64,000 bases of DNA. Source: a virus (lineage: Duplodnaviria > Caudoviricetes). This document shows positions 19,142-44,965 of this stretch, in pieces. The first letter of the stretch is position 1. Every line of letters begins with the position of its first letter. The stretch lies in the IMG/VR virus record IMGVR_UViG_3300025401_000012. One strand, written 5' to 3'. The position numbers were made by a program, and so were the translations under genes. Below the pieces are notes generated by a model that made no database searches, was not told where the DNA came from, and saw only the letters and a list, made by a program, of their open reading frames with translations.

Positions 19142-19170
19142 CTTTGCTCCTAAGTTTTTACTATGTATAT

Positions 19171-19199
19171 AGTATAACACCTCCCTAAGGAGGTGTCAA
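19171..19199 (-). promoter_or_regulatory. Sigma70 promoter TTGACA-N17-TATACT with an 8-bp inverted repeat filling the spacer
   Basis: ACACCTCC-ctaa-GGAGGTGT at 19177-19196. Confidence 0.8.
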
Positions 19200-23814: not shown

Positions 23815-23998
23815 TTTTCTTTTCCATACAATTACAATCTCTGCCTTGTCTACAATTGCCAGTACAAGAACTATTAATATTTTTAGTCCATCTTAATAAT
23901 AAACAAATTATTATTACCCAACCAATTATAAAACAAAACATAAAGAACATATTAAGTACCCCACTCATTTTTAAATAATGGCACTTGTAGTCTATCAC
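23807..23998 (-). CDS. Small membrane protein with Cys-rich tail
   Basis: One hydrophobic helix then CTGNCRQGRDCNC. True start is probably near 23950. Confidence 0.45.
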   Translation of the reverse strand: MIDYKCHYLKMSGVLNMFFMFCFIIGWVIIICLLLRWTKNINSSCTGNCRQGRDCNCMEKKND

Positions 23999-24803
23999 TA
24001 TAACGTAAACCTGCCTTCATAGCTAGTTCTGCTACACGTCGATTATTCAATGCATATACACTTTCTACTCCGCCTACTGGCATAAAATAAACAGCACCTT
24101 CAAATCCTAATGCACGATAAATGTCCATTACTTCTAGTGCTTCGTATGCATCATCTTCTGTGGCAATAACAAATTTTAAATAAGTCGGTCCTACTTCTTG
24201 ATACTCTAAAACAACATCTGGTTTAATAGCATCTTCACGTTTTTCTCCGCTACAGCTTAATTTTGGACTTACACTAAATGTTACAGCACGTGGATAATTA
24301 TTTCTAATAGACCATTCACTTAGATAGTCTTTAAATTCTTGTGTTAAATTTTGAGTACCATTAGTTTCAAATGTAATTTCTTTTAAATTACGCATGTCAG
24401 TATGATCGAGCAAGTCTGGATAGGCTTTCTGCCAACCTAACAAAGGTTCACCGCCTGTAATTACAAGATGCTCATCTAACCATGTTTTGTAAGGAAGAAT
24501 TTCCATAATACGATTTACAATAGCATCACTGGTAAGCATTGGACTGAGATCTTTAAAGCTAGGATGCCAACTAGCATAACTGTCACATCCTGTACTAACT
24601 AAAGGTAGTTCTTCGTACTTATTAAAGTGGAACGCCACTTGTGCAATATCGTCGGCTTCGGTACTAAGTTCGCCTCGAGGCATACCAAAGCCTGCACATT
24701 TAAAGTTACAACCAAATGTGCGCAAGAAAACAGACGGTACTCCCATGTATCGTCCTTCACCTTGAATACTATAAAATAATTCTGCTATTTTTAATTTACT
24801 CAT
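23952..24803 (-). CDS. queE: 7-carboxy-7-deazaguanine synthase (radical SAM)
   Basis: IAELFYSIQGEG, RTFGCNFKC...GCDS (about 30-aa insert before the third Cys), VITGGEPL, FETNGT, SVSPKL, RLQVPLF. Confidence 0.9.
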   Translation of the reverse strand: MSKLKIAELFYSIQGEGRYMGVPSVFLRTFGCNFKCAGFGMPRGELSTEADDIAQVAFHFNKYEELPLVSTGCDSYASWHPSFKDLSPMLTSDAIVNRIMEILPYKTWLDEHLVITGGEPLLGWQKAYPDLLDHTDMRNLKEITFETNGTQNLTQEFKDYLSEWSIRNNYPRAVTFSVSPKLSCSGEKREDAIKPDVVLEYQEVGPTYLKFVIATEDDAYEALEVMDIYRALGFEGAVYFMPVGGVESVYALNNRRVAELAMKAGLRYSDRLQVPLFKNEWGT

Positions 24804-25050
24804 CTTCGTCTCTTTCTAAATATTGACTTACTTGATCTTCTGCATCTTGTATACTTTCGGCCCATACTGTAAATGTAGCAATACCTTTACTAGCACTGAT
24901 ATTAAAAGGAACAGTACCATTGGGCAACCAATTGGGACCAACTTCACGTTTAATCTCAAACTTATTTAGGTCTGTAGTTTTCATACGATAAATTAATTCG
25001 TCGGTTAATTGTTTTGCGTTAGTCATTATTTTTTGTCCTCCCATTTCCAC
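24796..25050 (-). CDS. Hypothetical protein
   Basis: Packed between folE and queE. Confidence 0.5.
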   Translation of the reverse strand: MEMGGQKIMTNAKQLTDELIYRMKTTDLNKFEIKREVGPNWLPNGTVPFNISASKGIATFTVWAESIQDAEDQVSQYLERDEDE

Positions 25051-25217
25051 GGCTTGTCATTTCCTGCCCAATCTTGGACATCACAACTCCAACACATTAA
25101 ACGATTATAGGTTGGATACAACCAACCTAAATCAAACCAGTGCATTGGAAAACTAATCCAATGCCCTAAGTAGTATAACACTTCACTTAGTATTCTTGCA
25201 AATACTTTTTTAATCAT
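25026..25217 (-). CDS. Small Trp-rich hypothetical protein
   Basis: ATGA-coupled to folE. Confidence 0.5.
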   Translation of the reverse strand: MIKKVFARILSEVLYYLGHWISFPMHWFDLGWLYPTYNRLMCWSCDVQDWAGNDKPWKWEDKK

Positions 25218-25984
25218 TTTGAAGCATACTCTTGTTGCATTTTGATATTGTCAAAGAATTCTTTCTTTGTACCCATATCGTCTTTAAACGCACCTTTTAA
25301 TACTGTAGTCTGTGTTAAACTACTCTTAGCCATAATACCACGATTCTCACAGCAACCATGTGTCATTTGAATATAAACACCTAAGTCTGTTGCTCCGGTA
25401 GCTTTACCAATCTCGCGGGCAATGTCATTACAAAGTTCCTCCTGGAGAGTTCCACGTCGGGCACACCACTGTGCAATCCTGGTATACTTGCTAAGTCCGA
25501 TGAGTTTCTGCGCCGCAATAATACCAATATAAGCAACACCAACAACGGGTTGGTGATGATGGCTACACATACTGCGGAGCTCACTACGAACAACCAACAT
25601 ACCTTCGTAACGATCCACCGAATCATTTGGAAATGCTGTTGCGTCTGGTGCTGTGTCATATCTTCCTGCCATTATTTCATTAAAGTACATTTTAGCAAGA
25701 CGCTTTGCTGTACCTTTAGAGTTTGGATCTGTTTCTCGATCAATAAGCAACCGATCTAATACAGTTTCAAATGCCTCAGTTGCTTCTTCAATTAGTTTTG
25801 CTTTGTCTTCTTCGCTAACATAGTCGCTGATATTATCGCCAGCCCAAAAGCGTTTGCCTTCGCGTTTCATTTTAAATCGAAGATGATCTCCAAGATATGC
25901 TTCTTTATATTCTTTATTGTCATCGTCTTGCTGGTTAGCACCAGCTAACACATTTTTTAAATCTTCTGTTGTAAATGTAGTCAA
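25214..25984 (-). CDS. folE: GTP cyclohydrolase I
   Basis: TAKRLAKMY, SMCSHHHQP (Zn CxHH), GLSKYTRIA, QEEL, HGCCENRG. TTG start with AGGAG RBS. Confidence 0.95.
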   Translation of the reverse strand: MTTFTTEDLKNVLAGANQQDDDNKEYKEAYLGDHLRFKMKREGKRFWAGDNISDYVSEEDKAKLIEEATEAFETVLDRLLIDRETDPNSKGTAKRLAKMYFNEIMAGRYDTAPDATAFPNDSVDRYEGMLVVRSELRSMCSHHHQPVVGVAYIGIIAAQKLIGLSKYTRIAQWCARRGTLQEELCNDIAREIGKATGATDLGVYIQMTHGCCENRGIMAKSSLTQTTVLKGAFKDDMGTKKEFFDNIKMQQEYASK

Positions 25985-26004
25985 TTGATTCTCCTATCTG
26001 TTAT

Positions 26005-26033
26005 ATTATATAGGTTTATTTAGGTTTATTCAA
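26005..26033 (-). promoter_or_regulatory. Sigma70 promoter TTGAAT-N17-TATAAT for folE-queE
   Basis: Exact 17-nt spacing, directly upstream of the RBS. Confidence 0.7.
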
Positions 26034-26234
26034 GATATTTTCTGCTCGAAGTTTGCGACAAGCTTCTTTAACTGGTATAGGATAATCTGGACTTATTTCT
26101 GCTATTGAACAATCATACTTAACAACCACATGTGGATGTGTATAATTGTAGTAAACGGCAAATACTACTAGTAGTATTCCTAGTAGTAATACACTATAAA
26201 AGTCTAAATTCTGTCTGAAAGTAGAATCTTGCAT
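26016..26234 (-). CDS. Small single-TM protein
   Basis: Hydrophobic N-terminal helix. Confidence 0.5.
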   Translation of the reverse strand: MQDSTFRQNLDFYSVLLLGILLVVFAVYYNYTHPHVVVKYDCSIAEISPDYPIPVKEACRKLRAENILNKPK

Positions 26235-26407
26235 AATTCATAATCCTTTTTAGAATTAAAATAAAACGCCATATCTTCATATCTTGGATGATATGTATAA
26301 CGTTCTCCGGGTAAACCAAACACTTCTACTACATCAGCACAGGTGTCATTCCACCAATTATTATCTTGATTATGCCATGGTATTGTAATTTTAAAGTTTT
26401 CTTTCAT
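26204..26407 (-). CDS. Hypothetical protein
   Basis: Likely start MKENFKITIPW at 26407. Confidence 0.5.
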   Translation of the reverse strand: MKENFKITIPWHNQDNNWWNDTCADVVEVFGLPGERYTYHPRYEDMAFYFNSKKDYELCKILLSDRI

Positions 26408-26549
26408 TACGTTTGGCTTCTGCAAGTTGCTCTTCTAAATATTCTTTGTAAAAATTTAAAGTATCTATTGCTTTGATATCGTTAATTTTTTTTAAATCCT
26501 CATTAACAGATGCAATTTTTTCTTCTAATTCTTTAACAGATAATGTCAT
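26391..26549 (-). CDS. 52-aa coiled-coil hypothetical protein (not in the ORF track)
   Basis: Hand translation MTLSVKELEEKIASVNEDL...RNERKL fills the gap with overlaps on both sides. Confidence 0.55.
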   Translation of the reverse strand: MTLSVKELEEKIASVNEDLKKINDIKAIDTLNFYKEYLEEQLAEAKRNERKL

Positions 26550-26776
26550 TTTCTAAATTTTCCTGCAACACTACTACCGAATAATATATTAAAGGCCAAC
26601 CAAGTTTGCCAAGTTAACGGAATATTTAAATACTGAGGGAACAGGGTATTCAAACTCCAAATTCCGATAATTGGACCAATAGCAAGAGCAATGATAATAA
26701 ATGCAATGCCAATTAATAATTTTATTAATGCTGAAGTCATAACCAAAAATTCTCCCAAGGATAAACTAACCAACAA
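26546..26776 (-). CDS. Small membrane protein
   Basis: Two hydrophobic segments. Confidence 0.5.
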   Translation of the reverse strand: MLVSLSLGEFLVMTSALIKLLIGIAFIIIALAIGPIIGIWSLNTLFPQYLNIPLTWQTWLAFNILFGSSVAGKFRK

Positions 26777-27231
26777 TCTTCATCTCTTTTGTCTACAGTC
26801 CAAACATAATAGTCTGGATCTTTAAATTCACTGCCTAAGTTATGAGTCAATACTGCAAATCGAACATTGTCGCCCCATACATGATCCCATATACTAGTAT
26901 TGCCGGGCAAGCAACTCGCTTGCCAGTCTTTTTTGATCCAGGCTACTGTAGAGCCTTGATCATTGATATCATCTACTACTAATATCTTAGTACCTTCGTA
27001 AGCATCCTCTGCCATGCTACAATTACTAACGCAATCACCACCGTCACGAAGGCTAACGTCTAGGCTTGACATTTTAATGCCAGTATATTGACTAAGCAAA
27101 TTAGCTGGTACAAGTCCACCACGGGTTATACCCACAATATAGTCAGGCTTCCAATCGTGTGCTGACATTTGGCGAGCAATATCCAATACCGCTCCTTCGA
27201 CTTGTTGCCAGGTATAATATACTTTCTTCAT
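26737..27231 (-). CDS. Type I phosphoribosyltransferase (purine PRTase-like)
   Basis: IVGITRGGLVPA, the PRPP loop ILVVDDINDQGST, and WLVYPWE. Confidence 0.9.
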   Translation of the reverse strand: MKKVYYTWQQVEGAVLDIARQMSAHDWKPDYIVGITRGGLVPANLLSQYTGIKMSSLDVSLRDGGDCVSNCSMAEDAYEGTKILVVDDINDQGSTVAWIKKDWQASCLPGNTSIWDHVWGDNVRFAVLTHNLGSEFKDPDYYVWTVDKRDEDCWLVYPWENFWL

Positions 27232-27506: not shown

Positions 27507-27801
27507 TTATGTACTGATCGTACAATTCTTTGAGCTTTGGATGTTTATGTTCTAGTTTAACATCTCTTTCAGGGATTTGCAATACTGTTTCGATTGTCTT
27601 TAACCGTTCTTCTAAATCAACTCCGTTAATAACCATGTTACCTTTAACTTCTATGGTAGGCGGATTGGTTTGATTAATTATCATTACTTCACTGTTTGGA
27701 ACACTTGTACCAGTAGTCCAAACAGTATTTGTACCAGTTGATGTTAGGTAAGCACCGTTTGGTATAGCGGTCGTATTAGTTGTGGTTGGGAAGTAGGCCA
27801 T
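27445..27801 (-). CDS. Hypothetical protein with Thr-rich N-terminus
   Basis: Packed ORF. Confidence 0.5.
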   Translation of the reverse strand: MAYFPTTTNTTAIPNGAYLTSTGTNTVWTTGTSVPNSEVMIINQTNPPTIEVKGNMVINGVDLEERLKTIETVLQIPERDVKLEHKHPKLKELYDQYINALGKYRTFEAIKGDDDGTT

Positions 27802-28270
27802 TCTTTCTATCACTTAGATATTTTTCAAAGTGGATCCATTTATTTTCAACAATAAATCCCCACTCACGTTGACGTTTGCCTACAAAGAACAATGTCCAAG
27901 GAGTAACGCCTTCTTTTAATTCAATACGATGGAAGGTATGTGTGTTACCAAAACGGAAACTACCTGGGCCACGCCACACTCTTACTTCGCAATTCTTTGT
28001 ACCGTCTTCGTTAAACTGTGCGATCCACTCATAGTAGCCACCAGCAAGAATAATAGTAAAGTAATTCCATGGATGATCATGAACGTCATCTGGATCTGAC
28101 TTTAAGAACTTGTGTAAAAATACATTATAAGGAAATGTTACACGTTCTTTAAAAAGAACATAGTAACGTTCCAAGTATGGCTCGTTTTCTGTACGATCCA
28201 TAATAATGCGTTTACGGTCATGGCGTTCAAGCCAATTAAGGAATTGGTCTTTGATCTTCTGGAGTATCAT
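27776..28270 (-). CDS. Cupin-fold metal-binding protein
   Basis: LHKFLKSD...HDHPW...GGYYE...HTFHRIEL...WTLFFVG is the cupin HxH..E..H pattern. Confidence 0.7.
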   Translation of the reverse strand: MILQKIKDQFLNWLERHDRKRIIMDRTENEPYLERYYVLFKERVTFPYNVFLHKFLKSDPDDVHDHPWNYFTIILAGGYYEWIAQFNEDGTKNCEVRVWRGPGSFRFGNTHTFHRIELKEGVTPWTLFFVGKRQREWGFIVENKWIHFEKYLSDRKNGLLPNHN

Positions 28271-28652: not shown

Positions 28653-29697
28653 GTAAGTCCTTTGATTGTTTTCGGATCACAGGAATTCTTGTTGCATAAT
28701 TATCCATATGTTCCATTATCTTGCGACACAAATCCGGCCTGTAAACAGTATAAGCATCAAAACTTTCAGTCCATTTACTTGGATATTTAAATGTGTCGTA
28801 ATACATTTCTGTATAACTTAAACGATCCGGAACCATAGGAATAGCATCAACTACTGCACCTTCATAGCAACTAATGCCTAGTGTTTCTTGTAAGTTAGCA
28901 CTAAACACCATCTTCGCTTCGCCTAACAAGTTATGATATTCATTTTTTGTTAGTTGTTGATCCTGACACACTACAAATTCATACTGCGGTAAGTGTGTAG
29001 CTAAGTCTCGAAAAATCTCAACTTGCTTCTCGGGTGCAATACGATGCGGAAAAAGAATTAGGTCACGCTTGGGCATGTTCTTATATACAGTTAATGTATC
29101 TTCCATATACTCCATCGGCCAACCTGTGCGTACATATTTGCCAGACTCTAGCATATCTGCCTTGTCCTCTTCTTCCCATGGATTTTCAACCATTCCATCA
29201 TTTAATAAATTATGATGAAACATGTCAATATGGAATTGAGTAGCAAAGTAATTGTGATCAAATGCCGCAAAGAAACTTTTTTCAGCATGTCTAACCCAAG
29301 GCTTATTGCCAACAAGACGTCCAAGAAAATCTTGAGGATCATAACTGCCAGCATGCCAAAGTCCGTGTGTAACTACTGGAATGTTCAGCAGTTCGCTCAT
29401 GTATTTTAAGTTTATGATACCAGGATGCCAAGCATCAGTAAACAAGAAATGATCGCCAGGCTGAACTGATCCGGAGCAAAATAAACGCCCCATTTGTTCC
29501 ACTTGACTAGACTTATAGATATTGGTACCACCAAAATTAAGGAAAGCACCAGGAGTAGTGGCTGTAGGAATATCCGTAGGGCCAGATAGAATTTGAACAT
29601 TGTGTCCTGCCTTTCGTAAGAGATTAGGTACATGAGTCTTCCATTGACCCGTGTACCTAGTTTCTACCGCTTCTAGATCAATTAGAAAAACGTTCAT
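28606..29697 (-). CDS. GT-B (GT4-like) glycosyltransferase
   Basis: FPHRIAPEKQ and the E-x7-E motif LQETLGISCYEG, followed by VPDRLSYTEM. Confidence 0.8.
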   Translation of the reverse strand: MNVFLIDLEAVETRYTGQWKTHVPNLLRKAGHNVQILSGPTDIPTATTPGAFLNFGGTNIYKSSQVEQMGRLFCSGSVQPGDHFLFTDAWHPGIINLKYMSELLNIPVVTHGLWHAGSYDPQDFLGRLVGNKPWVRHAEKSFFAAFDHNYFATQFHIDMFHHNLLNDGMVENPWEEEDKADMLESGKYVRTGWPMEYMEDTLTVYKNMPKRDLILFPHRIAPEKQVEIFRDLATHLPQYEFVVCQDQQLTKNEYHNLLGEAKMVFSANLQETLGISCYEGAVVDAIPMVPDRLSYTEMYYDTFKYPSKWTESFDAYTVYRPDLCRKIMEHMDNYATRIPVIRKQSKDLHDNFFSATELLNNLN

Positions 29698-29938
29698 TGT
29701 TATTATAACGTGGATTTTTACCTAAATAAGGTTTACGTTCGCCTGTGTAAGGCTTTTTAGGGCGACGTGTTTTATCAAAATTACGCCATTGCCAGCTTTC
29801 TCTGTTATAAAGATGAGCCTCATCGAACGGTGCCCCCTCCATCTTACACCAATCTAAAAATGCTTCGAGATCTTCAAAGATTTTAACGATATCGGGGCGG
29901 GCTTCGAAATAACTAAAGTCCTTGTAGTTTGTAGCCAT
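29678..29938 (-). CDS. Hypothetical protein
   Basis: AGGAAAG RBS; lies between dpdL-like and the GT-B gene. Confidence 0.55.
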   Translation of the reverse strand: MATNYKDFSYFEARPDIVKIFEDLEAFLDWCKMEGAPFDEAHLYNRESWQWRNFDKTRRPKKPYTGERKPYLGKNPRYNNNERFSN

Positions 29939-29949
29939 TATAGCTTTCC

Positions 29950-30339
29950 TTAATATTTAATAAATGAACCATTTTCTCCATCTTCGGAGACCTCAATCCA
30001 AACCTCGCGGTTGGGATACTTTTGTGAAATCATGTCATATAAATCATCTGACATCATCTCGCAACTTTTATAATCTAGTTTTAGTATACTGTCTTTGTAT
30101 AAATTTTCCAACCAGCGTTTAAACTGGATGAATTCGACATCACGGTCGTTGTGGGTAACTGAAAGCCAAACGCGAAAATGGAATATATGACGATGAGGAG
30201 TAGCCAAAAACGATACATCATATTCATCTCCTGTTGCTAGGTTAGGATCTGTTGCGGCTGCTGGATAAGCGTGAATGCCTTCCTTTTGAAAAGTAACCCA
30301 GATCATTTTGTTTGGTCTAATATCTTGTTTAATGTTCAT
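29950..30339 (-). CDS. dpdL: T-fold QueD paralogue, probable DpdL-type CDG decarboxylase
   Basis: FLATPHRHIFHF matches LxxxHRHxF and lacks the CxxxHGH of canonical QueD; also VEFIQFK, SCEM and EVSEDGENG. Family assignment is from recall of the DpdL signature. Confidence 0.65.
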   Translation of the reverse strand: MNIKQDIRPNKMIWVTFQKEGIHAYPAAATDPNLATGDEYDVSFLATPHRHIFHFRVWLSVTHNDRDVEFIQFKRWLENLYKDSILKLDYKSCEMMSDDLYDMISQKYPNREVWIEVSEDGENGSFIKY

Positions 30340-30916
30340 TATAATTCTTTTTTAATTGTTCAAATGTGATATCTGTAATCTTATACATAAGAGTATATCT
30401 TATACCGTTATAAAATCGAGACATCGGCTTAACCATGTGTAATTGATTACTTGGAAATATTAATGTTTTATTATACGCTGGTATAATTGCAGTGTCAATG
30501 GTAATTGGTTTATTAAAATGATTTGGAATATGTTCGTCATTGCCTAAATCATTATAATAAAAATTATAAAGTATTGTTTCACCCCCCCAAGTAATGTTCC
30601 ATGTATCAGTGATAAAATTTATTACAGTAACACCGTCGTCTGTTTCGGTATCAAAATGAGCACCAGGTTCTAGTCCAAATGTTTGTGCATTAATATACGT
30701 GTTGCCACGTTTGCCGGCATACGAAAATTTATTACTAAATTGATCCCACATAGTTTCAATTAATGAATTTAATTGGGTATCTGGATTACTTTGATTCCAA
30801 TAATATGAACCTACAATATCTCTCCAAAAATATTTAAATGGGCTATCTTTAAGAATTTGATAAAATTTCTTATAAGTACTTGCCTCGTAAGTATTTTCTA
30901 AAATAAGATAACTCAT
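30329..30916 (-). CDS. 2OG-Fe(II) oxygenase (prolyl-hydroxylase-like)
   Basis: HFD...WGGET...NKTLIFPSNQLHMV...RYTL gives HxD...H...R. Confidence 0.75.
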   Translation of the reverse strand: MSYLILENTYEASTYKKFYQILKDSPFKYFWRDIVGSYYWNQSNPDTQLNSLIETMWDQFSNKFSYAGKRGNTYINAQTFGLEPGAHFDTETDDGVTVINFITDTWNITWGGETILYNFYYNDLGNDEHIPNHFNKPITIDTAIIPAYNKTLIFPSNQLHMVKPMSRFYNGIRYTLMYKITDITFEQLKKNYNEH

Positions 30917-31563
30917 AATTTTTTTAAACGTTGAATAGGATAATTATTAACTTGGAGTCTATCAATAAAAATTACTAAAGTCAATCTTTCATCAGTTGCA
31001 TCAAAATTATTTGCACCGTGAAACATTTGCGAGTCAAATGCAATAAGCCTGTTGAATTTATTTTTAATTACTATTGATTCTTTAAACTGCGCATTATGCT
31101 CCAACCTAAATTCTTCCATACTTTCTATAAGGTCGGTATTATCGAATGATTCTTTCTTTTTATCGGTATGCATAGCTACTGCAATTTCTGTTTTTTTCTC
31201 GTATAGTGTTGTTCCTGATGTAGGATCAGCATCATCATTTAAAAAAATAATAACTGTTATTAGCTCTGCATCAGTATGAATCCACCCGTCTTTGTATAGT
31301 TTATTAGTTTTTTGAAAACTACCATTAGCATGCCAAACAATATTAGTATTTGAATGATCGTAATATAAACTTAAAAATTTATTTACAATATAACCTAGCA
31401 TATCTTTATTAATTACATCTAATAATTCTGATCTTTCACCGGGCCACTGGTTTTGTGTATCCTTGGCATAAGATAAACTTAGTGCATAATTTTTAACCCA
31501 CAGTGGATCGTCAAAGAAATCGTCTAGTACAGTAATAGTAGGTAAAATATAATGCGAGGTCAT
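30913..31563 (-). CDS. 2OG-Fe(II) oxygenase-like protein
   Basis: VLDDFFDDP..V...WPGERS...WIHTD...GTTLY...NKFNRLIAFD..FHGA...RLT. Confidence 0.75.
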   Translation of the reverse strand: MTSHYILPTITVLDDFFDDPLWVKNYALSLSYAKDTQNQWPGERSELLDVINKDMLGYIVNKFLSLYYDHSNTNIVWHANGSFQKTNKLYKDGWIHTDAELITVIIFLNDDADPTSGTTLYEKKTEIAVAMHTDKKKESFDNTDLIESMEEFRLEHNAQFKESIVIKNKFNRLIAFDSQMFHGANNFDATDERLTLVIFIDRLQVNNYPIQRLKKL

Positions 31564-32096
31564 ACTTCTTTGTCTTGAGTATATTGATCCCAATACGTGT
31601 ACTTGTCCATCTTTAATAAATCATTTAACTGATGTGTCCATACACCGGGATTAGTAGCGCCCCAAGTTCTGTCATCTAATTTAACTGTTGTATTGTAGTT
31701 GAATTGATTAATATAAGGCAATTTAACACTGATCATGCTTACAAATTTTGGGTTTTCATTATAACCTGATTCAAGAACTCCTTCAGCATGAGCAACATCA
31801 AAATCTAAGGTAACCCAGTAACCTGCTTCTAAACATCCGTTAATAACAATATCCCAAGGTTTATATTCTGACACGCTAATGCTTTTAGGGTTAAAACTTT
31901 GACTAGTGCCAAAATATATATGTTTAATACGTTTTGTTTCGTCAATCATTGCTTGGCTATCGTTTGCAATACGTAGAATATCTTCAAGCGGAGGAGTACC
32001 TACTACAAATAATGTAAACATACCATGGCAAATGGTATGCTCAACTTCGTAGCCTGTAAAAAATGTAATGTCTTGTCTTTTATTTGTGTCTAGCAT
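31560..32096 (-). CDS. Hypothetical protein heading the dpdL/GT operon
   Basis: Directly behind a consensus promoter; no RBS visible. Confidence 0.6.
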   Translation of the reverse strand: MLDTNKRQDITFFTGYEVEHTICHGMFTLFVVGTPPLEDILRIANDSQAMIDETKRIKHIYFGTSQSFNPKSISVSEYKPWDIVINGCLEAGYWVTLDFDVAHAEGVLESGYNENPKFVSMISVKLPYINQFNYNTTVKLDDRTWGATNPGVWTHQLNDLLKMDKYTYWDQYTQDKEV

Positions 32097-32102
32097 AATG
32101 AT

Positions 32103-32131
32103 ATTGTATAGGGTTAAATGGTTAAAGTCAA
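32103..32131 (-). promoter_or_regulatory. Sigma70 promoter TTGACT-N17-TACAAT, probably leaderless
   Basis: The -10 box ends 7 nt before the ATG at 32096. Confidence 0.7.
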
Positions 32132-33669
32132 TGATTTTTATAAATTTTCTTTTTCAAAAATTCCAAATTAGATGGAAGTGTTTTGGTATAATTGTCAATT
32201 ATGGTTTTTCTCTTTTTCCATTCTTGGACAATATGTTTTAAAAATTCATAATTGATTTGATTTCGATCTTTTAATTGTTGTATCTTTAGATCAGATAACG
32301 GGTTATATCCCATGCCAGATAAAATTCTAATATTAAAACTAAGCTGATTTGAATGTAAATCTAAATCAGTTGATAAATTTTTAAATTCGGTAGAATCTTC
32401 TAAGTAGTCGATTTCTTCTGTCACATATTTCCAATAGTCGCTATCTTTTCTTTTGGAAAATGCATAATGTGCCGAAACAAAATCTCTCCAGCTATATAAT
32501 TCTTGTTTCGATTGATTATTGAATATATCCTTGTCTATAGTATTGATAAAACAATCTTTTACTGACAATAAAGATATTGCTCTCATAATGTTGTTATGAG
32601 TTACCATTAAACCTGTAGATCTTAATGGTTCTAAAAAACCAGAAGTTAGTCCTATAGCAAGCACATTCTTATACCATGATTTTTTTCTTACTCCGGGTTT
32701 AAAACTAATAAATCTTGGTTCGATATTATCGGCTCGGTCCCCATATGTGATGCGTAATCCTTCTTTGAATTCTTGTAATGCTGTTTCGTCGTCGACAAAT
32801 TTGCTAGAAAAAACATAACCAGCCCCAATTCTATCCCATACTGGGATATTCCATAACCAGCCATTTTTTAATGTTGTACAATCTGTCCACGAGTTTAATT
32901 CTGTTTCTTTATCAACATACGGAATATTAGTAGCTATAGCTCTATCATTTATTAATTTGTTAGAAAAACTTTCAAAAGGAACTTCTAGTGTTTTTTCTAT
33001 TAAAGTAGCTTCAAACCCAGTGCAGTCAATGTATAAGTCGGACTTTAATGTACCATTATTTTTTGTAATAATACAATCTATTTCTCCTATACCATTTGTA
33101 CGACATTCTATTACATCGTCTTCTAAATGAATAACTCCGTTTGGTAATGCTACTTTTTCTTTTAATGTTAAACCAAATTTATAAGCATCCATATGATAGG
33201 CTTTATCGTATTTGAAATTCCAATTAAGGACATCGTTACGATCGGTTAGTTTATTCTGCACAATCATTTCGTGGGTATCGTCGAAATATTTAGAAAATTC
33301 AGTAATATCTATATCGGGATATATCTTTGATACTAAAAAGAAATCTACAGGGCTAAAGTTTTCTACTGAAGATGCTTCTGGTTTTAATACATCGTAATAA
33401 GATGATGATTCGCTTAAAAAATTTGTAAATTTAATAGATGTTTTGTAAGTAGCATTAGCCTGAGGCATCCAGTCTTCGTCTTCTATATCAAGCATTTCTA
33501 AATAATGATTAATTGTTGCTAGTGACGACTCGCCTACACCCATGATAGAAACATTTTTAGATTCTACTAATGTAATTTTTAACTGAGGAAATATTTTTGA
33601 AAACGCAGCTGCTGTCATCCATCCCGATGACCCGCCACCGACTATAGTAACTGAATTAATTTTTGACAT
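32128..33669 (-). CDS. Tryptophan-halogenase-like flavoprotein
   Basis: IVGGGSSGWMTA, GVGESS, YIDCTGF, GWLWNIP (WxWxIP), GFLEPLRSTG. Confidence 0.85.
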   Translation of the reverse strand: MSKINSVTIVGGGSSGWMTAAAFSKIFPQLKITLVESKNVSIMGVGESSLATINHYLEMLDIEDEDWMPQANATYKTSIKFTNFLSESSSYYDVLKPEASSVENFSPVDFFLVSKIYPDIDITEFSKYFDDTHEMIVQNKLTDRNDVLNWNFKYDKAYHMDAYKFGLTLKEKVALPNGVIHLEDDVIECRTNGIGEIDCIITKNNGTLKSDLYIDCTGFEATLIEKTLEVPFESFSNKLINDRAIATNIPYVDKETELNSWTDCTTLKNGWLWNIPVWDRIGAGYVFSSKFVDDETALQEFKEGLRITYGDRADNIEPRFISFKPGVRKKSWYKNVLAIGLTSGFLEPLRSTGLMVTHNNIMRAISLLSVKDCFINTIDKDIFNNQSKQELYSWRDFVSAHYAFSKRKDSDYWKYVTEEIDYLEDSTEFKNLSTDLDLHSNQLSFNIRILSGMGYNPLSDLKIQQLKDRNQINYEFLKHIVQEWKKRKTIIDNYTKTLPSNLEFLKKKIYKNH

Positions 33670-33672
33670 AGG

Positions 33673-34602
33673 TCACCATTTAATATACCCTCTGCTATAA
33701 CCATTTGGGCGATTAGCTCCGTCTACAAATGCTTGTTCCCATTCATTGGTTCGATCATAACTTTTAGTCCAGAAATTATCGACTTCTAAGTAACCGTTTT
33801 CAATAAAATACTTGGCCATTTGCATACAATCAATAAATTTTGGATTACGAGGACTAGGTTTAACAGTAGTAACAGCTTTCCAAAGTTGAGATTGTGCTTC
33901 TTGTTTACTAACAGCTTTACCTACACCGTCGATGATTAATGCATTGTTATTTAGGTTAATCTGTGTGCCTAATTCATAATTTCCACTAAGATCCACAACA
34001 ACATCATAATTTTCAATAGTACTAGATTGTAACCTACTACCCCATAGTTCTTTATTGCTATGTCCTAACACATCTACATGAAATATATAACCATTTAGTC
34101 GCATAGCATGATAAGCAACCCATGCAAGGAATCCGCTGCCGATGATCAACATACGTGTATTTTCACTACGACCTTGCCTGTCTAATAATTGTTCTTTAGC
34201 TTGATTAATAAGATTAAGCCCACATGCAACTGGTTCTAAGATATATTTAGGTTCAGCTTCTGGAACTATTACAAATTCTTCAATACGTACATTATAATAA
34301 TCGGCATACGCAGGTTCTCCGCGTGTTGCTACAATATCACCTACATTAGTTTTAGCAACCCCTATTCCTACTTTAGTTACTATACCTAGCCCTTCGTGAC
34401 CTTGCATGTGTAAGGGCAAAGGACCAAAATCTCCCATCATCATGTCAATATCACTACGACAAACGCCAGTCATTAGAGCTTTAACTTCAATCTCATATTG
34501 CCCAGGCTCTGGTTTATCGTATTCAACTTCTTCAAACCAACCTTGACCTGTTGTTTGTAAACATTTTATTTTCATAAATTTTCTATTTGTTCGTGAATCC
34601 AT
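33673..34602 (-). CDS. MDR-family Zn-binding alcohol/polyol dehydrogenase
   Basis: GVCRSDID, GHEGLG, LEPVAC, IGSGFLA. Lacks the four-Cys structural Zn lobe. Confidence 0.85.
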   Translation of the reverse strand: MDSRTNRKFMKIKCLQTTGQGWFEEVEYDKPEPGQYEIEVKALMTGVCRSDIDMMMGDFGPLPLHMQGHEGLGIVTKVGIGVAKTNVGDIVATRGEPAYADYYNVRIEEFVIVPEAEPKYILEPVACGLNLINQAKEQLLDRQGRSENTRMLIIGSGFLAWVAYHAMRLNGYIFHVDVLGHSNKELWGSRLQSSTIENYDVVVDLSGNYELGTQINLNNNALIIDGVGKAVSKQEAQSQLWKAVTTVKPSPRNPKFIDCMQMAKYFIENGYLEVDNFWTKSYDRTNEWEQAFVDGANRPNGYSRGYIKW

Positions 34603-35453
34603 GTGTCGATGTCGACTTGTTTAAGCCAAAACTCGTAATCGTCTATTCGATTAACAGCTTCTGCAATCATAGCTTGATATGCGTCTTCTGGACATAAACC
34701 TAGTTCAAATGATTCTAACGAACCATCTGGCATAGTAAACATGATAACTCTGCTATCAAAATCATTAGTACGCCAGTTTGCTAATAAATTCCATTTGTCA
34801 GTAAATGTCATATAACATTCATCATCCACATCATATGTACCGTTAGGGTTAACAATACCGTAATCTGTTTGAGTTAATTGTTCTAGTTTCCAATTTGTCT
34901 TTGTACCGCTACTAATGCGTATGTCTTTACGCCATGCAGGATTTAATGCAATATATAAACTTAACAAATGTGGCATTAAATCTCGACTAACTCCTCCAAA
35001 CGCATATTTTTTAGTAGTAAACCAAGTACCAGGGTTAGGAACACGATCCTTATTAAGCCATAATAGATCTACACTAGCTGATTTTGTAGCTAATTTTTTT
35101 AAATCGTCAATATTACTCCGCCACATATTGTTTTTAACCATCATAAATCGTGTTTGCGGAAACGCTTCAAGCAGTCTTTTCCATGTAGTACTATTTGCAA
35201 CTCCGGGTTTTTCGATAAAAACAATTTTGCTATAGGGCGCTAGTTTGGCTGCTAATTCAAAATGTGTAAAATTAGGTGTGCAAATATGTACAGTATCGAA
35301 CATACGGCATGCTACAATAGCAGAGTCAACAGTTTGAAAATCTGCATTTTTGCTAGGGTCTGTATCAACAGTAATAACACTGTGCCCGAGATTATGTAGT
35401 ACATCTACATATAATTGTCCAATGCCCATGCCAACAACAAGACTAGTTTTCAT
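34572..35453 (-). CDS. Gfo/Idh/MocA family oxidoreductase
   Basis: VVGMGIG, HICTPNFTH, FIEKPG, GGVSRDLMPH. Confidence 0.85.
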   Translation of the reverse strand: MKTSLVVGMGIGQLYVDVLHNLGHSVITVDTDPSKNADFQTVDSAIVACRMFDTVHICTPNFTHFELAAKLAPYSKIVFIEKPGVANSTTWKRLLEAFPQTRFMMVKNNMWRSNIDDLKKLATKSASVDLLWLNKDRVPNPGTWFTTKKYAFGGVSRDLMPHLLSLYIALNPAWRKDIRISSGTKTNWKLEQLTQTDYGIVNPNGTYDVDDECYMTFTDKWNLLANWRTNDFDSRVIMFTMPDGSLESFELGLCPEDAYQAMIAEAVNRIDDYEFWLKQVDIDTWIHEQIENL

Positions 35454-35703
35454 TGTTAAATTCCTTTCCTTCTTCCCAGTATTTGATCATACGATGTACA
35501 TCTTCCATACGTTCTTGAACAACTTCTGGAGCTGCATGCTCTAATTGCTTCATAGTATGATACGATGGGAAATGTCGTAAGCACCAACGAGCTTGCTCAC
35601 GTATTTCTTTTGGTATACGTGGAGTTTTTTGAGGATTAGTTAAATCCTGTAAAAATTCCTCCGTAAGAAGTACAGATCGAAATCTTTCGTCAGGTAATGT
35701 CAT
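35443..35703 (-). CDS. Hypothetical protein
   Basis: Coupled between dpdA and the oxidoreductase. Confidence 0.55.
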   Translation of the reverse strand: MTLPDERFRSVLLTEEFLQDLTNPQKTPRIPKEIREQARWCLRHFPSYHTMKQLEHAAPEVVQERMEDVHRMIKYWEEGKEFNNEN

Positions 35704-37393
35704 GTATACTAGCCTCTAATTCATCTAGTTTATCGGAAACTTCGTCAGAAAATTCTTCTTGCTCTTCGGATTGTACACTATCTTCTCCTACTACTACAAA
35801 TAATTCGGAAAACTTACCACTTGAATTAACGGTTTTCTTTCCTGTGGCACCACGTGTTCCGGGAATAGCTTGCCAAAATTTATCATATTTGTCGATGATA
35901 GCAATAGCAGATGCACGATCAGGAGCACTAAAAATGTCATCTACTACATCTCTAAAATAAACTCGATTAAATTTTTCATCAACTAACATAGCTGGGCAAA
36001 GACCTGCATCATATTGACGATTAGCTTCTTGTACACTATTCAAATGTAACCAAACATTATGCCCCATCATAATAGCATAGGTAAAACTATCCCATGATGT
36101 CTTACCTACTTTGCCTATTTTATTTAGATCATTAGGGCCATATATGCAAATTTCATTAACTTTAACTCCGTCCATTAATGGACTAGTTGTGAAACTGTCA
36201 AAATGTTTATCTTGTACTACCACATCTTTGAAGAGACGAGTATCCTTGGAATATTTTTTGTTGTCGAGACTTGGGAGCATACGATAGAGCCATTTGCCCC
36301 TGTCTTTAATTTCTGTTTGGACATAGATTTGTCCGTTTGCTGTTGCGAGGAACGGTGAGGCGCAATCAAAAGAGATGGTAAAGTTTTCATTATGGTATTT
36401 CCTTACAGCACGTTGTATATCAGTTAATAATAATGCCCACTCTAATTTAGAGGTGCCCAAGAAGTGCATCCAATCCTGATGACCCTTTTCAAGAAGGCCA
36501 TCAAATTTCAATGCCACTAATCTACGTAGTACTAGGTCGACATCGCACATGTTTTGTCCGCCCATACCCCAACCATTAAACGGTTTATCGTATTTTTTAG
36601 GATCGCAAAAATCCTTCATTTGTTGATACCAATCTTCCGCCTGGTCGTGATTTTCACCTTGTAATACATTTAGGAATTTACAAGCACCTGTGCGATGCTT
36701 AATAAAATATTCGTTGTTGTATTTGGTAGCTGCAACAGCTTGTGGATAATTAGCAATACCACTATTTTTAGCACCAACTGGACTTCGTCCAACCCATGCT
36801 GGTACATCAAGCACCATACCGTAATCCATAAGAGCATCCATCCATGCTAGTACTTGTTCACGCTTTTTCTGTGCAGCATCTAGTTTTGCTTGATAAATTT
36901 TAACATGATCAATTTTAGTATACTTAGGATTACCATTTTTATCTGTCTTAGGATGTCCTGTTGGATGTAATTGCGGAACTAACTCAACACCTTTCGCAAT
37001 GGCTTCGGCCATTCGTTGTGCAACTACAGGTCCGTTAGGATCATTCCATTCACCTTCCCATACACCTTTACCAATTTGGAAACCTCCAGAGTCGCCTAAC
37101 ACCCAACTAGTACTACGATCTCTATTACGGAACATATCTTCGCTTGGATCTGGTTTAGATAAATCTAAATTAGCATGACCAGCCGAATACAAGCAATGAT
37201 CGTAGTAAAAAGCTGCGTTAGGATCTAAATAGTTCATAGCTTCAATACCCATGTGCCCAAAGCTAGCTGGGATACGAGCAGGATCTACATAATTACCAAA
37301 ACGTTGTTTACCGATATACGTGCTATAGAATCCAGAAGTAGCCGGCAAAAAATATGCGTAATCGTTTTGTGTTGCTGTTAAATTTTTATTCAA
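35690..37393 (-). CDS. dpdA: TGT-fold DNA 7-deazaguanine transglycosylase (DpdA/DpdA2-like)
   Basis: VLGDSGGFQIG, NVLQG, WMHFLGT and SFDCASP (nucleophile Asp position); co-located with folE and queE. Confidence 0.8.
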   Translation of the reverse strand: MNKNLTATQNDYAYFLPATSGFYSTYIGKQRFGNYVDPARIPASFGHMGIEAMNYLDPNAAFYYDHCLYSAGHANLDLSKPDPSEDMFRNRDRSTSWVLGDSGGFQIGKGVWEGEWNDPNGPVVAQRMAEAIAKGVELVPQLHPTGHPKTDKNGNPKYTKIDHVKIYQAKLDAAQKKREQVLAWMDALMDYGMVLDVPAWVGRSPVGAKNSGIANYPQAVAATKYNNEYFIKHRTGACKFLNVLQGENHDQAEDWYQQMKDFCDPKKYDKPFNGWGMGGQNMCDVDLVLRRLVALKFDGLLEKGHQDWMHFLGTSKLEWALLLTDIQRAVRKYHNENFTISFDCASPFLATANGQIYVQTEIKDRGKWLYRMLPSLDNKKYSKDTRLFKDVVVQDKHFDSFTTSPLMDGVKVNEICIYGPNDLNKIGKVGKTSWDSFTYAIMMGHNVWLHLNSVQEANRQYDAGLCPAMLVDEKFNRVYFRDVVDDIFSAPDRASAIAIIDKYDKFWQAIPGTRGATGKKTVNSSGKFSELFVVVGEDSVQSEEQEEFSDEVSDKLDELEASIHDIT

Positions 37394-37565
37394 TTTTACC
37401 CCACTTAATCTTTAACCATATACGTTCGTGACCGTAATGGATTGCAGTCAATATTAAATGAATTAATATTGCATCACTTAATCCGGTCCATATCGCCGTA
37501 ATCATTAGAGCAATGACCCTGTAAGTAATTGCTCTAACGATAGTTCTTTTATGGAGTTCGACCAT
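37386..37565 (-). CDS. 59-aa membrane protein, DUF2061-like (not in the ORF track)
   Basis: Hand translation MVELHKRTIVRAITYRVIAL...IHYGHERIWLKIKWGKIE; TAATG-coupled to the clamp gene. Confidence 0.65.
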   Translation of the reverse strand: MVELHKRTIVRAITYRVIALMITAIWTGLSDAILIHLILTAIHYGHERIWLKIKWGKIE

Positions 37566-38296
37566 TACTTGCTTTGTGCTGGAAGAATATATTCGTACAC
37601 TGCAATACCGCTATCAACAGTGATATTCAATGCACCTGCATCTGCAATACGCATAGTAATATCGCCAGACAAATTCAAAATACTCTGAACAGCAGTAACT
37701 GGCCAAGACCATGTTGATTTTAATTTTCCATCGATTCCTGCCTGGAATACAAAATTACCAGCATGTGTAGTCGCATCTCCAAAACTAAAAATTAAATTAT
37801 TGTCTTTGGTAGTTACTTGGAATGTTGGTTCTTCACTGTGCGAAGCTGATTGAAATTTAAAACGTTGTACACTAGCCATAGCTGGCTTAAATTCAATATC
37901 CCAACTAGTGCCTTTAAACTTAACAGTTTTAAGTTTTTCGTTAATAATATCTTGATTCATAAAACGATAATCGTTTTCAAAATCACCAGCACCATTTTGA
38001 AAGTGTAATCCTGTTGGAATTTCTTCACCGTTGCGTTGTTGTTTTACAACATCAATTGTGAAATTTTCTTTGTACTCTGGGCATTTCAACAGAATGTCTA
38101 ACTTGTTTAAGTTAGGCATACCAAACGTGCCTTCAAGTGAGTCTACAGTTTCTTTAGTTTTAGCGTTAAGAATAACACTACGATCTTCTGCCATTGATTC
38201 AATTACCGCTCCTTTTTCATTAGCTGTAATTTTTACAATTGGTAAAAATCCTAAACTGTGTGTATGTGCTACTAGGTCTTGTAAAAAGTCTTTCAT
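37565..38296 (-). CDS. DNA sliding clamp (gp45/PCNA-like)
   Basis: About 243 aa, alternating beta/alpha pattern, ends YEYILPAQSK like clamp C-termini. PolB and the clamp loader are in the same window. Confidence 0.6.
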   Translation of the reverse strand: MKDFLQDLVAHTHSLGFLPIVKITANEKGAVIESMAEDRSVILNAKTKETVDSLEGTFGMPNLNKLDILLKCPEYKENFTIDVVKQQRNGEEIPTGLHFQNGAGDFENDYRFMNQDIINEKLKTVKFKGTSWDIEFKPAMASVQRFKFQSASHSEEPTFQVTTKDNNLIFSFGDATTHAGNFVFQAGIDGKLKSTWSWPVTAVQSILNLSGDITMRIADAGALNITVDSGIAVYEYILPAQSK

Positions 38297-38314
38297 AATA
38301 TTCTCCATGTTTTT

Positions 38315-38343
38315 ATTATATAGGTTCTGCGTGACTATGTCAA
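38315..38343 (-). promoter_or_regulatory. Perfect sigma70 promoter TTGACA-N17-TATAAT
   Basis: Upstream of the clamp-dpdA-oxidoreductase run, with a GGAG RBS. Confidence 0.85.
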
Positions 38344-39111
38344 TGTTTTTCTAATTTTCTTATTATATTTTATTGCCGATTCTACAAGTGTATGTGAAAT
38401 CTGCAAACTATCTGCATAGTGTACAAATGCATTTGTATCTTTAGGGAAACATGCTCCACCAAAACCACGACTACCGTCTGGACCGGGAACTTGCATATGA
38501 CTGTTACCTATGCGTTCGTCTAATTGTAATAATTCAACAATCTTGTTATAGTCTGCGCCATTCATTTGGCACATGTCATATAACTGATTGAAGAACGCTA
38601 CTTTGACACTTAGGAAACAATTGGTAGCATATTTGACCATACTTGCTTCTGTTAGTGTACAATGCTCGATCTTATTTAGGTTTTTAAGCGAGACAATGAA
38701 TAATTCTCTCCAAATATTTCCGGGATTACTTCCGCCTAAAATCATATACTCCTGATTAGCAAAATCTTCGTTGGCACTAACCGCACGTAAAAATTCTGGG
38801 CTATAGGCAATACTATGATTGGGGTAGTTTACAAGTAATCTTTCTAGATAGTTTGGCGGCACTGTTGATTTAAGTAATACCGGTATATGCACAGGAACAG
38901 TATCCATTACTTGATATATTTGATTTACATCGCAATCCCCTGTTTCAGTGCTCGGTGTTCCTACACAAATAATTACTCCTTCAGCATCCGGATAATCTTT
39001 TACTGTTTGTTCGCTTATCTTTGGATCAACAATATATACTATGTTATTTTTATCTATGGCATTAGCAACAGCCTTGCCTACAAATCCATATCCTGCAATT
39101 ATAATTTTCAT
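38335..39111 (-). CDS. ugd: UDP-glucose/GDP-mannose 6-dehydrogenase family protein lacking the C-terminal domain
   Basis: IAGYGFVG, CVGTP, KSTVPP, PEFLR, VKYATN, GFGGACFPKD. Only about 258 aa. Confidence 0.85.
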   Translation of the reverse strand: MKIIIAGYGFVGKAVANAIDKNNIVYIVDPKISEQTVKDYPDAEGVIICVGTPSTETGDCDVNQIYQVMDTVPVHIPVLLKSTVPPNYLERLLVNYPNHSIAYSPEFLRAVSANEDFANQEYMILGGSNPGNIWRELFIVSLKNLNKIEHCTLTEASMVKYATNCFLSVKVAFFNQLYDMCQMNGADYNKIVELLQLDERIGNSHMQVPGPDGSRGFGGACFPKDTNAFVHYADSLQISHTLVESAIKYNKKIRKTLT

Positions 39112-44942: not shown

Positions 44943-44965
44943 TATTTTTCCCCGACTTGATATAT

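Follow-up and report, generated by a model that had tools for sequence, protein, structure and literature searches.

The 64,000-nt stretch of Caudoviricetes virus DNA from IMG/VR record IMGVR_UViG_3300025401_000012 (hereafter the window) carries a set of genes which is supported by sequence comparison as a FolE/QueE/DpdL/DpdA module for the modification of DNA with 7-deazaguanine (DG). Set among these genes is one which codes for a glycosyltransferase (GT), and genomic comparison gives good support for the view that this GT belongs to the deazaguanine pathway. We propose that the module, which is linked to replisome genes in an aquatic jumbo phage, installs a sugar-bearing 7-deazaguanine by means of the GT. 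Judged from the sequences, this proposal has about an even chance of being right. A GT4-like fold with an intact EX7E motif, taken together with the linkage to dpdA and dpdL, makes a sugar-bearing 7-deazaguanine a serious hypothesis.

An earlier note on this DNA, prepared without database searches, had proposed that the phage makes an unusual sugar donor and attaches the sugar to a deazaguanine inserted into its DNA. The deazaguanine module and the co-occurrence of the GT with dpdA and dpdL stood up to closer analysis; the unusual sugar donor is less well supported. The window represents 64 kb of a genome of about 345 kb, and statements at the genome level are taken from a 345-kb relative which is 94% complete.

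The deazaguanine core

The QueD-like protein of the window has the motif L45-ATP-H49-R50-H51-I-F53. This is an exact instance of the signature LxxxHRHxF, which takes the place of CxxxHGH in QueD and separates DpdL, the proposed decarboxylase of 7-carboxy-7-deazaguanine (CDG), from QueD (Cui, Hutinet et al., NAR 2023, PMC10516641). The protein shows 65% sequence identity to its counterpart from Sinorhizobium phage Phosso, 56% to that from Pseudomonas phage PA5oct, 54% to that from Acidovorax phage ACP17, and 33% to that from Cellulophaga phage phiST. A sequence search of solved structures with DpdL returned nothing meaningful.

The DpdA protein carries motifs of the tRNA-guanine transglycosylase (TGT) type in the order in which they occur in TGT, namely GDSGGFQ (with D101), HFLGTS, and SFDCASP (with D343). 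The stretches DSGGFQ, LGTS, and FDCASP do not vary among homologues with identities as low as 30%. The nearest named protein-atlas clusters carry PF01702 (TGT) or PF23859 (DpdA), and the protein is 30% identical to the PA5oct protein which is encoded beside the GT of that phage. No match was obtained for this long DpdA from Pfam, NCBIfam, or a sequence search of the PDB, and a comparison of its family profile with solved structures also gave nothing meaningful. BLAST finds no link to the DpdA3 proteins, and alignment to DpdA3 from ACP17 with hhalign is weak (E 0.0014, probability 17.5%). We thus treat the protein as the representative of a separate, long-form DpdA subfamily.

The NCBIfam models for QueE match the radical S-adenosylmethionine (SAM) enzyme at 1e-14, which is below their cut-off, and the protein shares 33% identity with QueE from Xanthomonas phage X1. 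The spacing of its cluster cysteines is unusual (C32-x3-C36-x36-C73, then D-S); an insert separates the second cysteine from the third. FolE is kept in 49 of the 50 close relatives (see below) which span the region from GT to QueE. A true QueD was not found in the window by tblastn with QueD from ACP17. QueD (PF01242, 1e-14) is encoded elsewhere in two related phage records. In the 345-kb relative it is located about 50 kb from the module, which characterizes this virus as a jumbo phage. A queC gene was absent from the window according to the earlier note, and indeed none of the 49 open reading frames (ORFs) of the window which were scanned against Pfam matches PF06508. In the 345-kb relative, the QueC model gives only partial matches, over about 60 of its 210 positions, in proteins of 390-409 aa.

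The DpdL signature, the DpdA motifs, and the family matches thus support the view taken in the note that this is a 7-deazaguanine DNA-modification region with a QueD paralogue and a TGT-like DpdA. The module is a variant of the DpdL-type deazaguanine system which is new in form.

Fold and catalytic motifs of the glycosyltransferase

Taken alone, the GT has no sequence match in Pfam, in NCBIfam, or among solved structures. In a library of 50%-identity representatives, 1,107 relatives were detected at E ≤0.001, and 44 of these were used for alignment and for AlphaFold2 (AF2) modelling. PF00534 is matched by 32 of these 44 family members (best E-value 3e-8) and PF13439 by three.

The AF2 model (pLDDT 95.1, pTM 0.91) has the GT-B fold with its two Rossmann domains. 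When compared to the PDB by Foldseek, it matches glycogen synthase, BshA, MshA, and PglA at probability 1.0 (E 3e-10, TM about 0.6), and also PimA. The best structural matches, from the PDB and from Swiss-Prot models, are retaining GT-B enzymes of the GT4/GT5 type. The EX7E motif is intact (E271-x7-E279), and E279 is invariant among the 44 homologues. The basic residues for diphosphate binding (K210, R219, and K224) are conserved in at least 90% of them, and the stretch PHRxAPEKQ is likewise conserved in the family. On the strength of the model and these motifs, the protein is apparently functional as a nucleotide-sugar transferase, with an N-terminal acceptor domain found only in its own family.

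A kinship with the tRNA-queuosine mannosyltransferase QTMAN (GTDC1) was also considered. The QTMAN_N domain (PF12038) is absent among the best 25 of 30 Pfam families for the 44 members, and no QTMAN occurs among the 30 best Swiss-Prot models; a distant link may nevertheless exist.

Linkage of the glycosyltransferase gene with dpdA and dpdL

Among 50,697 phage records, tblastn returned 17 strong GT matches. All 17 are in DpdL-positive records, of which there are 28. The GT gene is located within 3 kb of dpdL in each of the 17 records, and in most it directly adjoins dpdA or dpdL. The records represent 11 PA5oct-like Pseudomonas jumbo phages, Sinorhizobium phage Phosso, Acidovorax phage ACP17 (two records), Xanthomonas phages X1 and BUDD, and Burkholderia phage BCSR5.

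The module is thus found in five lineages of cultured phages (PA5oct, ACP17, X1, BCSR5, and Phosso), and its gene order differs between them. PA5oct has the order polymerase, clamp-like protein, DpdA, GT, DpdL and, after further genes, PRTase (phosphoribosyltransferase) and QueE. The order is FolE, u178-like protein, DpdA3, GT, DpdL, QueE in ACP17, where u178 denotes a conserved 178-aa protein of the window. Phage X1 has FolE, followed after further genes by GT, DpdA, DpdL, and QueE. In BCSR5, the GT is followed by a 446-aa protein in the position of DpdA, which BLAST did not link to other DpdA proteins, and DpdL is encoded about 2.7 kb upstream. The order in Phosso is DpdL, GT, one other gene, FolE.

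Eight metagenomic GT representatives at 28-40% identity were also considered, and seven of these could be judged from the DNA of the encoding contig. DpdL is adjacent or two genes away in 7/7 cases, and FolE, QueE, QueD, and DpdA are nearby where the contig allows. On one metagenomic phage contig (L096, 2328-11040), genes for four DpdA3-like paralogues, three of them in tandem (515, 445, and 523 aa) and one more of 499 aa, surround those for a radical SAM protein, DpdL, and GT. NADAR and nucleoside deoxyribosyltransferase genes are also present on this contig.

A scan of species genomes with eight of the closer GT sequences yielded 35 loci from bacteria and metagenome-assembled genomes (MAGs). 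A DpdA-like gene is located within 8 kb of the GT gene in 30 of these, and the other five loci end at contig edges. Eight of the 35 are phage contigs of the same family which were binned into MAGs. The remaining loci are mostly from alphaproteobacteria (Magnetospirillum, Pelagibacterium, Devosia, Sulfitobacter, Shimia, and others).

Two of the bacterial islands illustrate these loci. The island from Magnetospirillum aberrantis (L126, 6324-13365 and 14916-15488) codes for a CoiA-like nuclease, GT, DpdL, a long DpdA, QueD, two unknown ORFs, and a phage-type integrase. The nuclease gene adjoins the GT gene, and the integrase gene is about 6 kb from it. A near-identical arrangement is found in seven loci of the Magnetospirillum type (L123-L129). 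This may be an island for deazaguanine-based modification and restriction which includes the same GT family. The island from Pelagibacterium mangrovi (L115, 3042-9035) codes for a resolvase, two unknown ORFs, a DpdA-like protein, a protein with a weak match (E 1.7e-4) to the Vut_1/YhhQ family, which we take to be a family of queuosine-precursor transporters, and the GT. Within 8 kb, no DpdL, QueE, or FolE was detected by BLAST, which suggests that the pair of GT and DpdA can act on salvaged deazaguanine precursors.

DpdL-positive phages without the GT do exist, namely phiST, phi13:1, phi19:2, and six other phages. Plain 2'-deoxy-7-deazaguanosine (dDG) has been measured in phiST, phi13:1, and phi19:2 (PMC10516641). 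The GT is thus a frequent add-on to the DpdL pathway rather than a requirement. Rhizobium phage RHph_I1_18 (L093, 7971-9232), which is DpdL-positive and has no GT match, carries a macrodomain (Appr-1-p processing) gene directly after dpdL.

The co-occurrence with dpdA and dpdL on which the earlier note had made its reading depend is thus strong (17/17 phages, 7/7 metagenomic contexts, and 30/35 bacterial or MAG loci), and the assignment of the GT to the deazaguanine pathway is well supported by genomics.

Conserved and strain-specific genes among close relatives

A set of 80 viral contigs with a GT of 80-94% sequence identity has a common gene order. We consider that an arrangement which is shared by 80 related contigs is not a chance outcome. 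Sixty-three loci span the region from DpdA to DpdL, 50 that from GT to QueE, and 30 that from polymerase to QueE; the gene counts refer to these sets. When the DNA of the region was compared by megablast to the 50,697 phage records, no match was obtained.

GT, DpdL, u178, and DpdA occur together in 63/63 close relatives. The gene for an 86-aa protein after dpdA is present in 50/63. The gene for another 86-aa protein, between dpdL and the GT gene, was found in 74 of 84 loci (the 80 viral contigs and four regions from cultured phages), always in that position. The cupin is encoded in 48/50 relatives and the PRTase in 45/50. PRTase homologues are found in the PA5oct module and in locus L102, and another PRTase is encoded near the GT on contig P0324.

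Homologues of u178 adjoin dpdA in ACP17 and in locus L095, and the one from PA5oct is encoded about 27 kb from the module. The AF2 model of u178 has pLDDT 82, with VIA Z ≤6.7 and with STAS, QueE, and other partial barrels tied. Foldseek found no PDB match at E ≤0.001, and the AlphaFold database gave only an unnamed homologue. An ADP-ribosyltransferase assignment (Arr-ms/PARP; protein-atlas score 0.92, with few shared features) was not borne out by AF2 and Foldseek.

The interval from DpdA to DpdL is longest in the window (7,054 bp compared to at most 5,462 bp in the relatives), because of an insert of cyanophage-like genes. The inserted genes code for a flavin-dependent halogenase (0/63 relatives) and for two 2-oxoglutarate (2OG) oxygenases, of which the first occurs in 0/63 and the second (DUF6445) in 3/63 relatives. 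The halogenase is about 40% identical to proteins encoded by cyanophages (Syn9, S-CREM1, P-RSM6). Weaker or partial matches were found in Pelagibacter phage HTVC008M and Campylobacter phage CP21, and no closely related sequence emerged when viral contigs were scanned. The halogenase and the two oxygenases (30329-33669) are strain-specific cargo, unrelated to the module.

A halogenated deazaguanine, formed by action of the halogenase on the electron-rich pyrrole ring, was considered and found unlikely, given the absence of the gene from all 63 relatives and of a close relative from the viral contigs. The halogenase was also rejected as a part of the module; its homologues are from cyanophages and pelagiphages, none of which came up in the searches with DpdA or DpdL.

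Putative sugar-handling enzymes and the phosphoribosyltransferase

The proteins from the Gfo/Idh/MocA family and from the medium-chain dehydrogenase/reductase (MDR) family occur jointly in 31/63 relatives. They are not encoded in the examined regions of PA5oct, ACP17, X1, and BCSR5, all of which keep the GT. The order DpdA-Gfo-MDR recurs in a distant, T4-like locus (L104) with a GT of about 40% identity, where the Gfo homologue is 37% identical (E 6e-54) and the MDR homologue 36%. We read the pair as a genuine accessory of the module, since it recurs directly after DpdA in a distant lineage.

The UDP-glucose dehydrogenase (UGDH)-like gene is present in 27/30 relatives at a variable position. 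Its product matches positions 70-298 of the 413 in TIGR03026. The match to UGDH is confined to the central domain and a portion of the N-terminal one. The motif GGACFPKD with the catalytic cysteine is kept. The protein lacks the C-terminal UDP-binding domain and is thus not a canonical nucleotide-sugar enzyme. This short form is conserved and, as the position of its gene shifts as well, its substrate may not be a UDP-sugar.

As the Gfo/MDR pair is confined to 31 of 63 relatives and a UDP-binding domain is lacking in the UGDH-like protein, the unusual sugar donor postulated in the earlier note has become a weaker proposition. The note had also counted the PRTase among the sugar-handling enzymes. 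This protein is better explained by guanine salvage or by the formation of a deazapurine nucleotide.

Gene inventory of the locus

The genes of the module and the context genes are compiled in Table 1. Genes were called with Pfam, PHROGs, and NCBIfam, combined with an inspection of the translations. Beyond about 16.4 kb, nearly all genes of the window are on the minus strand. This includes every gene of the module, so that the direction of transcription runs from DNA polymerase to QueE. According to its gene context, the module is linked to replisome genes (polymerase and clamp-like protein).

All genes listed in the earlier note (folE, queE, PRTase, cupin, GT-B, QueD-like, MDR, Gfo/Idh/MocA, DpdA, UGDH-like) were recovered on the minus strand, and the GT gene is indeed the second gene after the dpdL-like gene. 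This list was incomplete, with the halogenase (PF04820, 8e-99) and the two 2OG oxygenases omitted.

Table 1. Genes of the modification module, strain-specific genes, and context genes in the window
Feature	Position	Strand	Basis of assignment
QueE-like radical SAM enzyme (CDG synthase)	23952..24803	-	phrog_2076 7.8e-54
FolE, GTP cyclohydrolase I	25214..25984	-	PF01227 1.6e-36
Xanthine/guanine-type PRTase	26737..27231	-	PF00156 7.6e-13; NF006613 XPRT 1e-11
Cupin with HxH...H metal motif	27776..28270	-	phrog_4786 7.9e-36
GT4-like GT-B glycosyltransferase, 363 aa	28606..29697	-	AF2 model, Foldseek, and motifs
Conserved 86-aa protein between dpdL and GT	29678..29938	-	Recurrence in relatives
DpdL, QueD-like, 129 aa, proposed CDG decarboxylase	29950..30339	-	LxxxHRHxF signature
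First 2OG-Fe(II) oxygenase	30329..30916	-	Pfam
Second 2OG-Fe(II) oxygenase, DUF6445	30913..31593	-	Pfam
u178, conserved 178-aa alpha/beta protein	31560..32096	-	Recurrence in relatives
Flavin-dependent 'tryptophan' halogenase, 513 aa, GWLWNIP motif	32128..33669	-	PF04820 8.1e-99
MDR (zinc alcohol dehydrogenase-like) oxidoreductase	33673..34602	-	ADH_N 1e-9
Gfo/Idh/MocA oxidoreductase	34572..35453	-	PF01408 8.4e-8
Conserved 86-aa protein after dpdA	35443..35703	-	Recurrence in relatives
Long-form DpdA, TGT-like, 567 aa	35690..37393	-	TGT-type motifs, protein-atlas neighbours
Probable sliding clamp (context gene)	37565..38308	-	phrog_12062 9.4e-39; 30% identity to Phosso gene annotated as sliding clamp
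Short UDP-glucose-dehydrogenase-like protein, 262 aa	38335..39123	-	PF00984 1.9e-24; PF03721 in part
Family B DNA polymerase (context gene)	39113..41782	-	PF00136 2.1e-38; PF03104 1.8e-19

Other genes of the window code for the thymidylate synthase ThyX (15767-16447; PF02511, 5e-46), an HNH endonuclease (17957-19180; phrog_1314, 1e-110), a full DnaJ with J domain and C-terminal domain (55726-56589), and PhoH (60374-61093). Five ORFs scanned in the stretch 11889-15774 gave no Pfam match at E ≤0.001. A 919-aa protein with a peptidoglycan-binding domain (PF01471) is encoded at 42222-44981. It has no tblastn match in 84 loci, most related contigs ending short of that distance beyond the polymerase.

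Comparison with known systems

The dDG system of phiST (PMC10516641) likewise comprises FolE, QueE, and a DpdL with the LxxxHRHxF signature, and its genes adjoin replication genes, as they do in the window. It also has QueD, encoded outside the window in related phages, and a divergent transglycosylase of the DpdA family, to which the TGT-like protein of the window would correspond. QueC is not part of it, and no QueC match was seen among the 49 ORFs of the window which were scanned. The examined region of phiST, however, has no GT, u178, PRTase, or Gfo/MDR, and codes for a small P-loop protein between DpdL and DpdA3. The DpdA from the window is of the 567-aa long form, which BLAST does not link to the phiST-type DpdA3. 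PA5oct (Wroclawvirus) has the same set of polymerase, clamp-like protein, long DpdA, GT, DpdL, PRTase, and QueE (30% sequence identity for DpdA, 44% for GT, and 56% for DpdL). Its examined region is devoid of Gfo/MDR, the UGDH-like gene, the cupin, the halogenase, and the 2OG oxygenases.

The bacterial Dpd system (dpdA-K), which leads to 7-cyano-7-deazaguanine (preQ0) or 7-amido-7-deazaguanine (ADG) in DNA, also relies on insertion by a protein of the DpdA family, and the pair of GT and DpdA is found on bacterial mobile islands as well. In contrast to the bacterial system, neither DpdB nor DpdC was identified in the window, the DpdA is from another subfamily, and GT and DpdL are present.

The alpha- and beta-glucosyltransferases of phage T4 are also soluble GT-B enzymes from a phage (about 350-400 aa), and we propose that the GT from the window, too, sugar-coats a non-canonical base after replication. 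The T4 enzymes have no sequence match to this GT and are absent from its 50 best structural matches, which are of the GT4/GT5 type. Their target is 5-hydroxymethylcytosine (hmC), whereas that of the GT would be a purine analogue, and the close relative is devoid of a hydroxymethylase. A ThyA-family enzyme of this kind was searched for in the 94%-complete relative, and no PF00303 match was found. With ThyX encoded in the window, a T4-like target (hmC or 5-hydroxymethyluracil, hmU) is thus unlikely.

In the huimycin pathway, HuiG glycosylates a preQ0-derived 7-deazapurine with UDP-GlcNAc as donor, and members of the family of huimycin biosynthetic gene clusters carry GTs of the PF13439 type. Like the GT from the window in its proposed role, HuiG has as acceptor a base of the 7-deazaguanine type which derives from FolE, QueD, and QueE. 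It differs in being a secondary-metabolite enzyme of actinomycetes which has a free base as acceptor and is not associated with a DpdA. This precedent shows that a 7-deazapurine base can be glycosylated.

Proposed pathway and alternative explanations

By homology, FolE, QueD (encoded elsewhere in the genome), and QueE would convert GTP to CDG, which would be decarboxylated by DpdL to 7-deazaguanine, as proposed in the literature. The long TGT-like DpdA would then exchange guanine in phage DNA for 7-deazaguanine. The GT would move the sugar from a nucleotide sugar onto the deazaguanine, most likely once this base is in the DNA, and a sugar-bearing purine would result. The PRTase probably serves to convert the guanine set free in this exchange back to GMP and thus to GTP, the substrate of FolE. 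In the strains which have them, the Gfo-MDR pair and the UGDH-like protein are probably responsible for further modification of the sugar.

In a wider form of this proposal, glycosylated 7-deazaguanine replaces G in a globally abundant group of aquatic jumbo phages, in phages like PA5oct, ACP17, and X1, and on some alphaproteobacterial mobile islands, and the sugar is further oxidized or epimerized by the Gfo, MDR, and UGDH-like proteins in some strains. We hold this wider form tentatively, at a probability somewhat short of even. For PA5oct, the resistance of its DNA to enzymes in restriction digests points to some form of modified G. The earlier note knew of no description of the glycosylated derivative, and full-text literature searches retrieved no paper which describes a glycosylated deazaguanine in DNA.

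Several points weigh against a sugar-bearing base. 7-Deazaguanine has no hydroxyl group. A sugar would have to be attached via N2, O6, or a C-glycosidic bond, for which an electron-rich pyrrole carbon is the candidate atom on plain DG, or else the base is not plain DG. The GT-positive phages are known here from their genes, and their base chemistry is a prediction. Phage phiST makes plain dDG with DpdL and without a GT, so insertion does not need one there, and the decarboxylation of CDG by DpdL is itself a proposal, the activity never having been demonstrated in vitro or in E. coli (PMC10516641). On some bacterial islands, the GT is paired with DpdA, and no DpdL could be found at a distance of up to 8 kb. 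This would make the acceptor a feature common to several deazaguanines, or something other than the base. Finally, tetrahydrobiopterin glucosyltransferases are among the structural neighbours of the GT, and a pterin acceptor is conceivable.

The last of these points leads to an explanation by which the DNA carries plain dDG, as in phiST, and the GT acts on free deazaguanine base or on a pterin by-product of FolE/QueD, with detoxification, export, or regulation as the purpose. Pterins and deazapurines are produced in large amounts by the pathway, HuiG works on a free preQ0-derived deazapurine, and dDG suffices as end product in phiST (PMC10516641). The structures 5zer and 9v0l of BGluT, the cyanobacterial tetrahydrobiopterin enzyme, are among the Foldseek matches (E about 4e-8), but rank no higher than dozens of other GT4 enzymes. 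An enzyme for side products is not expected to stay strictly adjacent throughout shuffled gene orders, and the GT is most tightly linked to the DNA-acting DpdA, including on bacterial islands for which no synthesis gene was found within 8 kb. We regard a small-molecule acceptor as rather unlikely. The same direct and repeated adjacency to dpdA, in phages and in bacteria, would also be seen if the GT-like protein were an accessory of DpdA, required for DNA loading, base flipping, or exchange like DpdB for the bacterial DpdA, with sugar transfer being optional. When DpdA and DpdL from ACP17 were expressed without the GT, no dDG was obtained in E. coli, a result which led the authors to suggest that a factor was missing; DpdA3 from phiST, however, works in its phage without any GT (PMC10516641). 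The donor-site motifs (EX7E and the conserved R and K) are kept in 44 diverse homologues, as they are in an active transferase, and we consider a purely accessory role to be quite improbable.

It could also be argued that the GT and the sugar-type dehydrogenases serve a role unrelated to DNA, such as in glycans of the virion or the host envelope, and are located here only because auxiliary genes tend to collect in this early, replication-linked region. The same interval has gained clear cargo, the halogenase and the 2OG oxygenases (0-3/63 relatives), Gfo and MDR are not obligatory, and the position of the UGDH-like gene varies. The GT, unlike this cargo, is present in 63/63 relatives. It accompanies dpdL and dpdA in unrelated phages and on bacterial islands with different neighbours, and 17/17 of its strong matches among the phage records are in DpdL-positive phages. 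This linkage makes an unrelated role unlikely, and we assign only a low probability to it. If, on the other hand, the base entered the DNA before replication, the PRTase would make the CDG or DG nucleotide, which would then be reduced, phosphorylated, and polymerized, and the GT would act on the nucleotide or nucleoside. A purine-type PRTase is common among the relatives and recurs in PA5oct and L102, with another one near the GT on P0324, and TubE from tubercidin biosynthesis is a PRTase which forms a deazapurine nucleotide. Salvage of the guanine released by base exchange is a simpler explanation for the PRTase, however, and DpdA is always present. Published work argues that all known deazaguanines in DNA are inserted after replication (PMC10516641). 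A route via nucleotides has a very slight probability in our view.

Significance

To our knowledge, the sugar-bearing DNA bases known so far are all pyrimidines (glucosyl- and arabinosyl-hmC, base J, and glycosylated 5-hydroxycytosine), and the deazaguanines reported in DNA all carry small substituents. If our proposal is correct, a glycosylated deazapurine would represent a new class of DNA base and the first sugar-modified purine in any DNA, with the sugar added by a dedicated, GT4-like DNA glycosyltransferase which works together with DpdA. Such a role of the GT might explain the failure of DpdA and DpdL from ACP17 in E. coli. A new enzyme for DNA labelling would become available, and the sequencing and PCR of these phages would be biased.

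Public metagenomes contain more than 7,500 clusters at 90% identity for the GT, and likewise for DpdA; both counts are lower bounds. The modification could thus be common in lakes and oceans. It would shape which of the restriction, CRISPR, END-nuclease, and DNA-glycosylase defences work on these phages.

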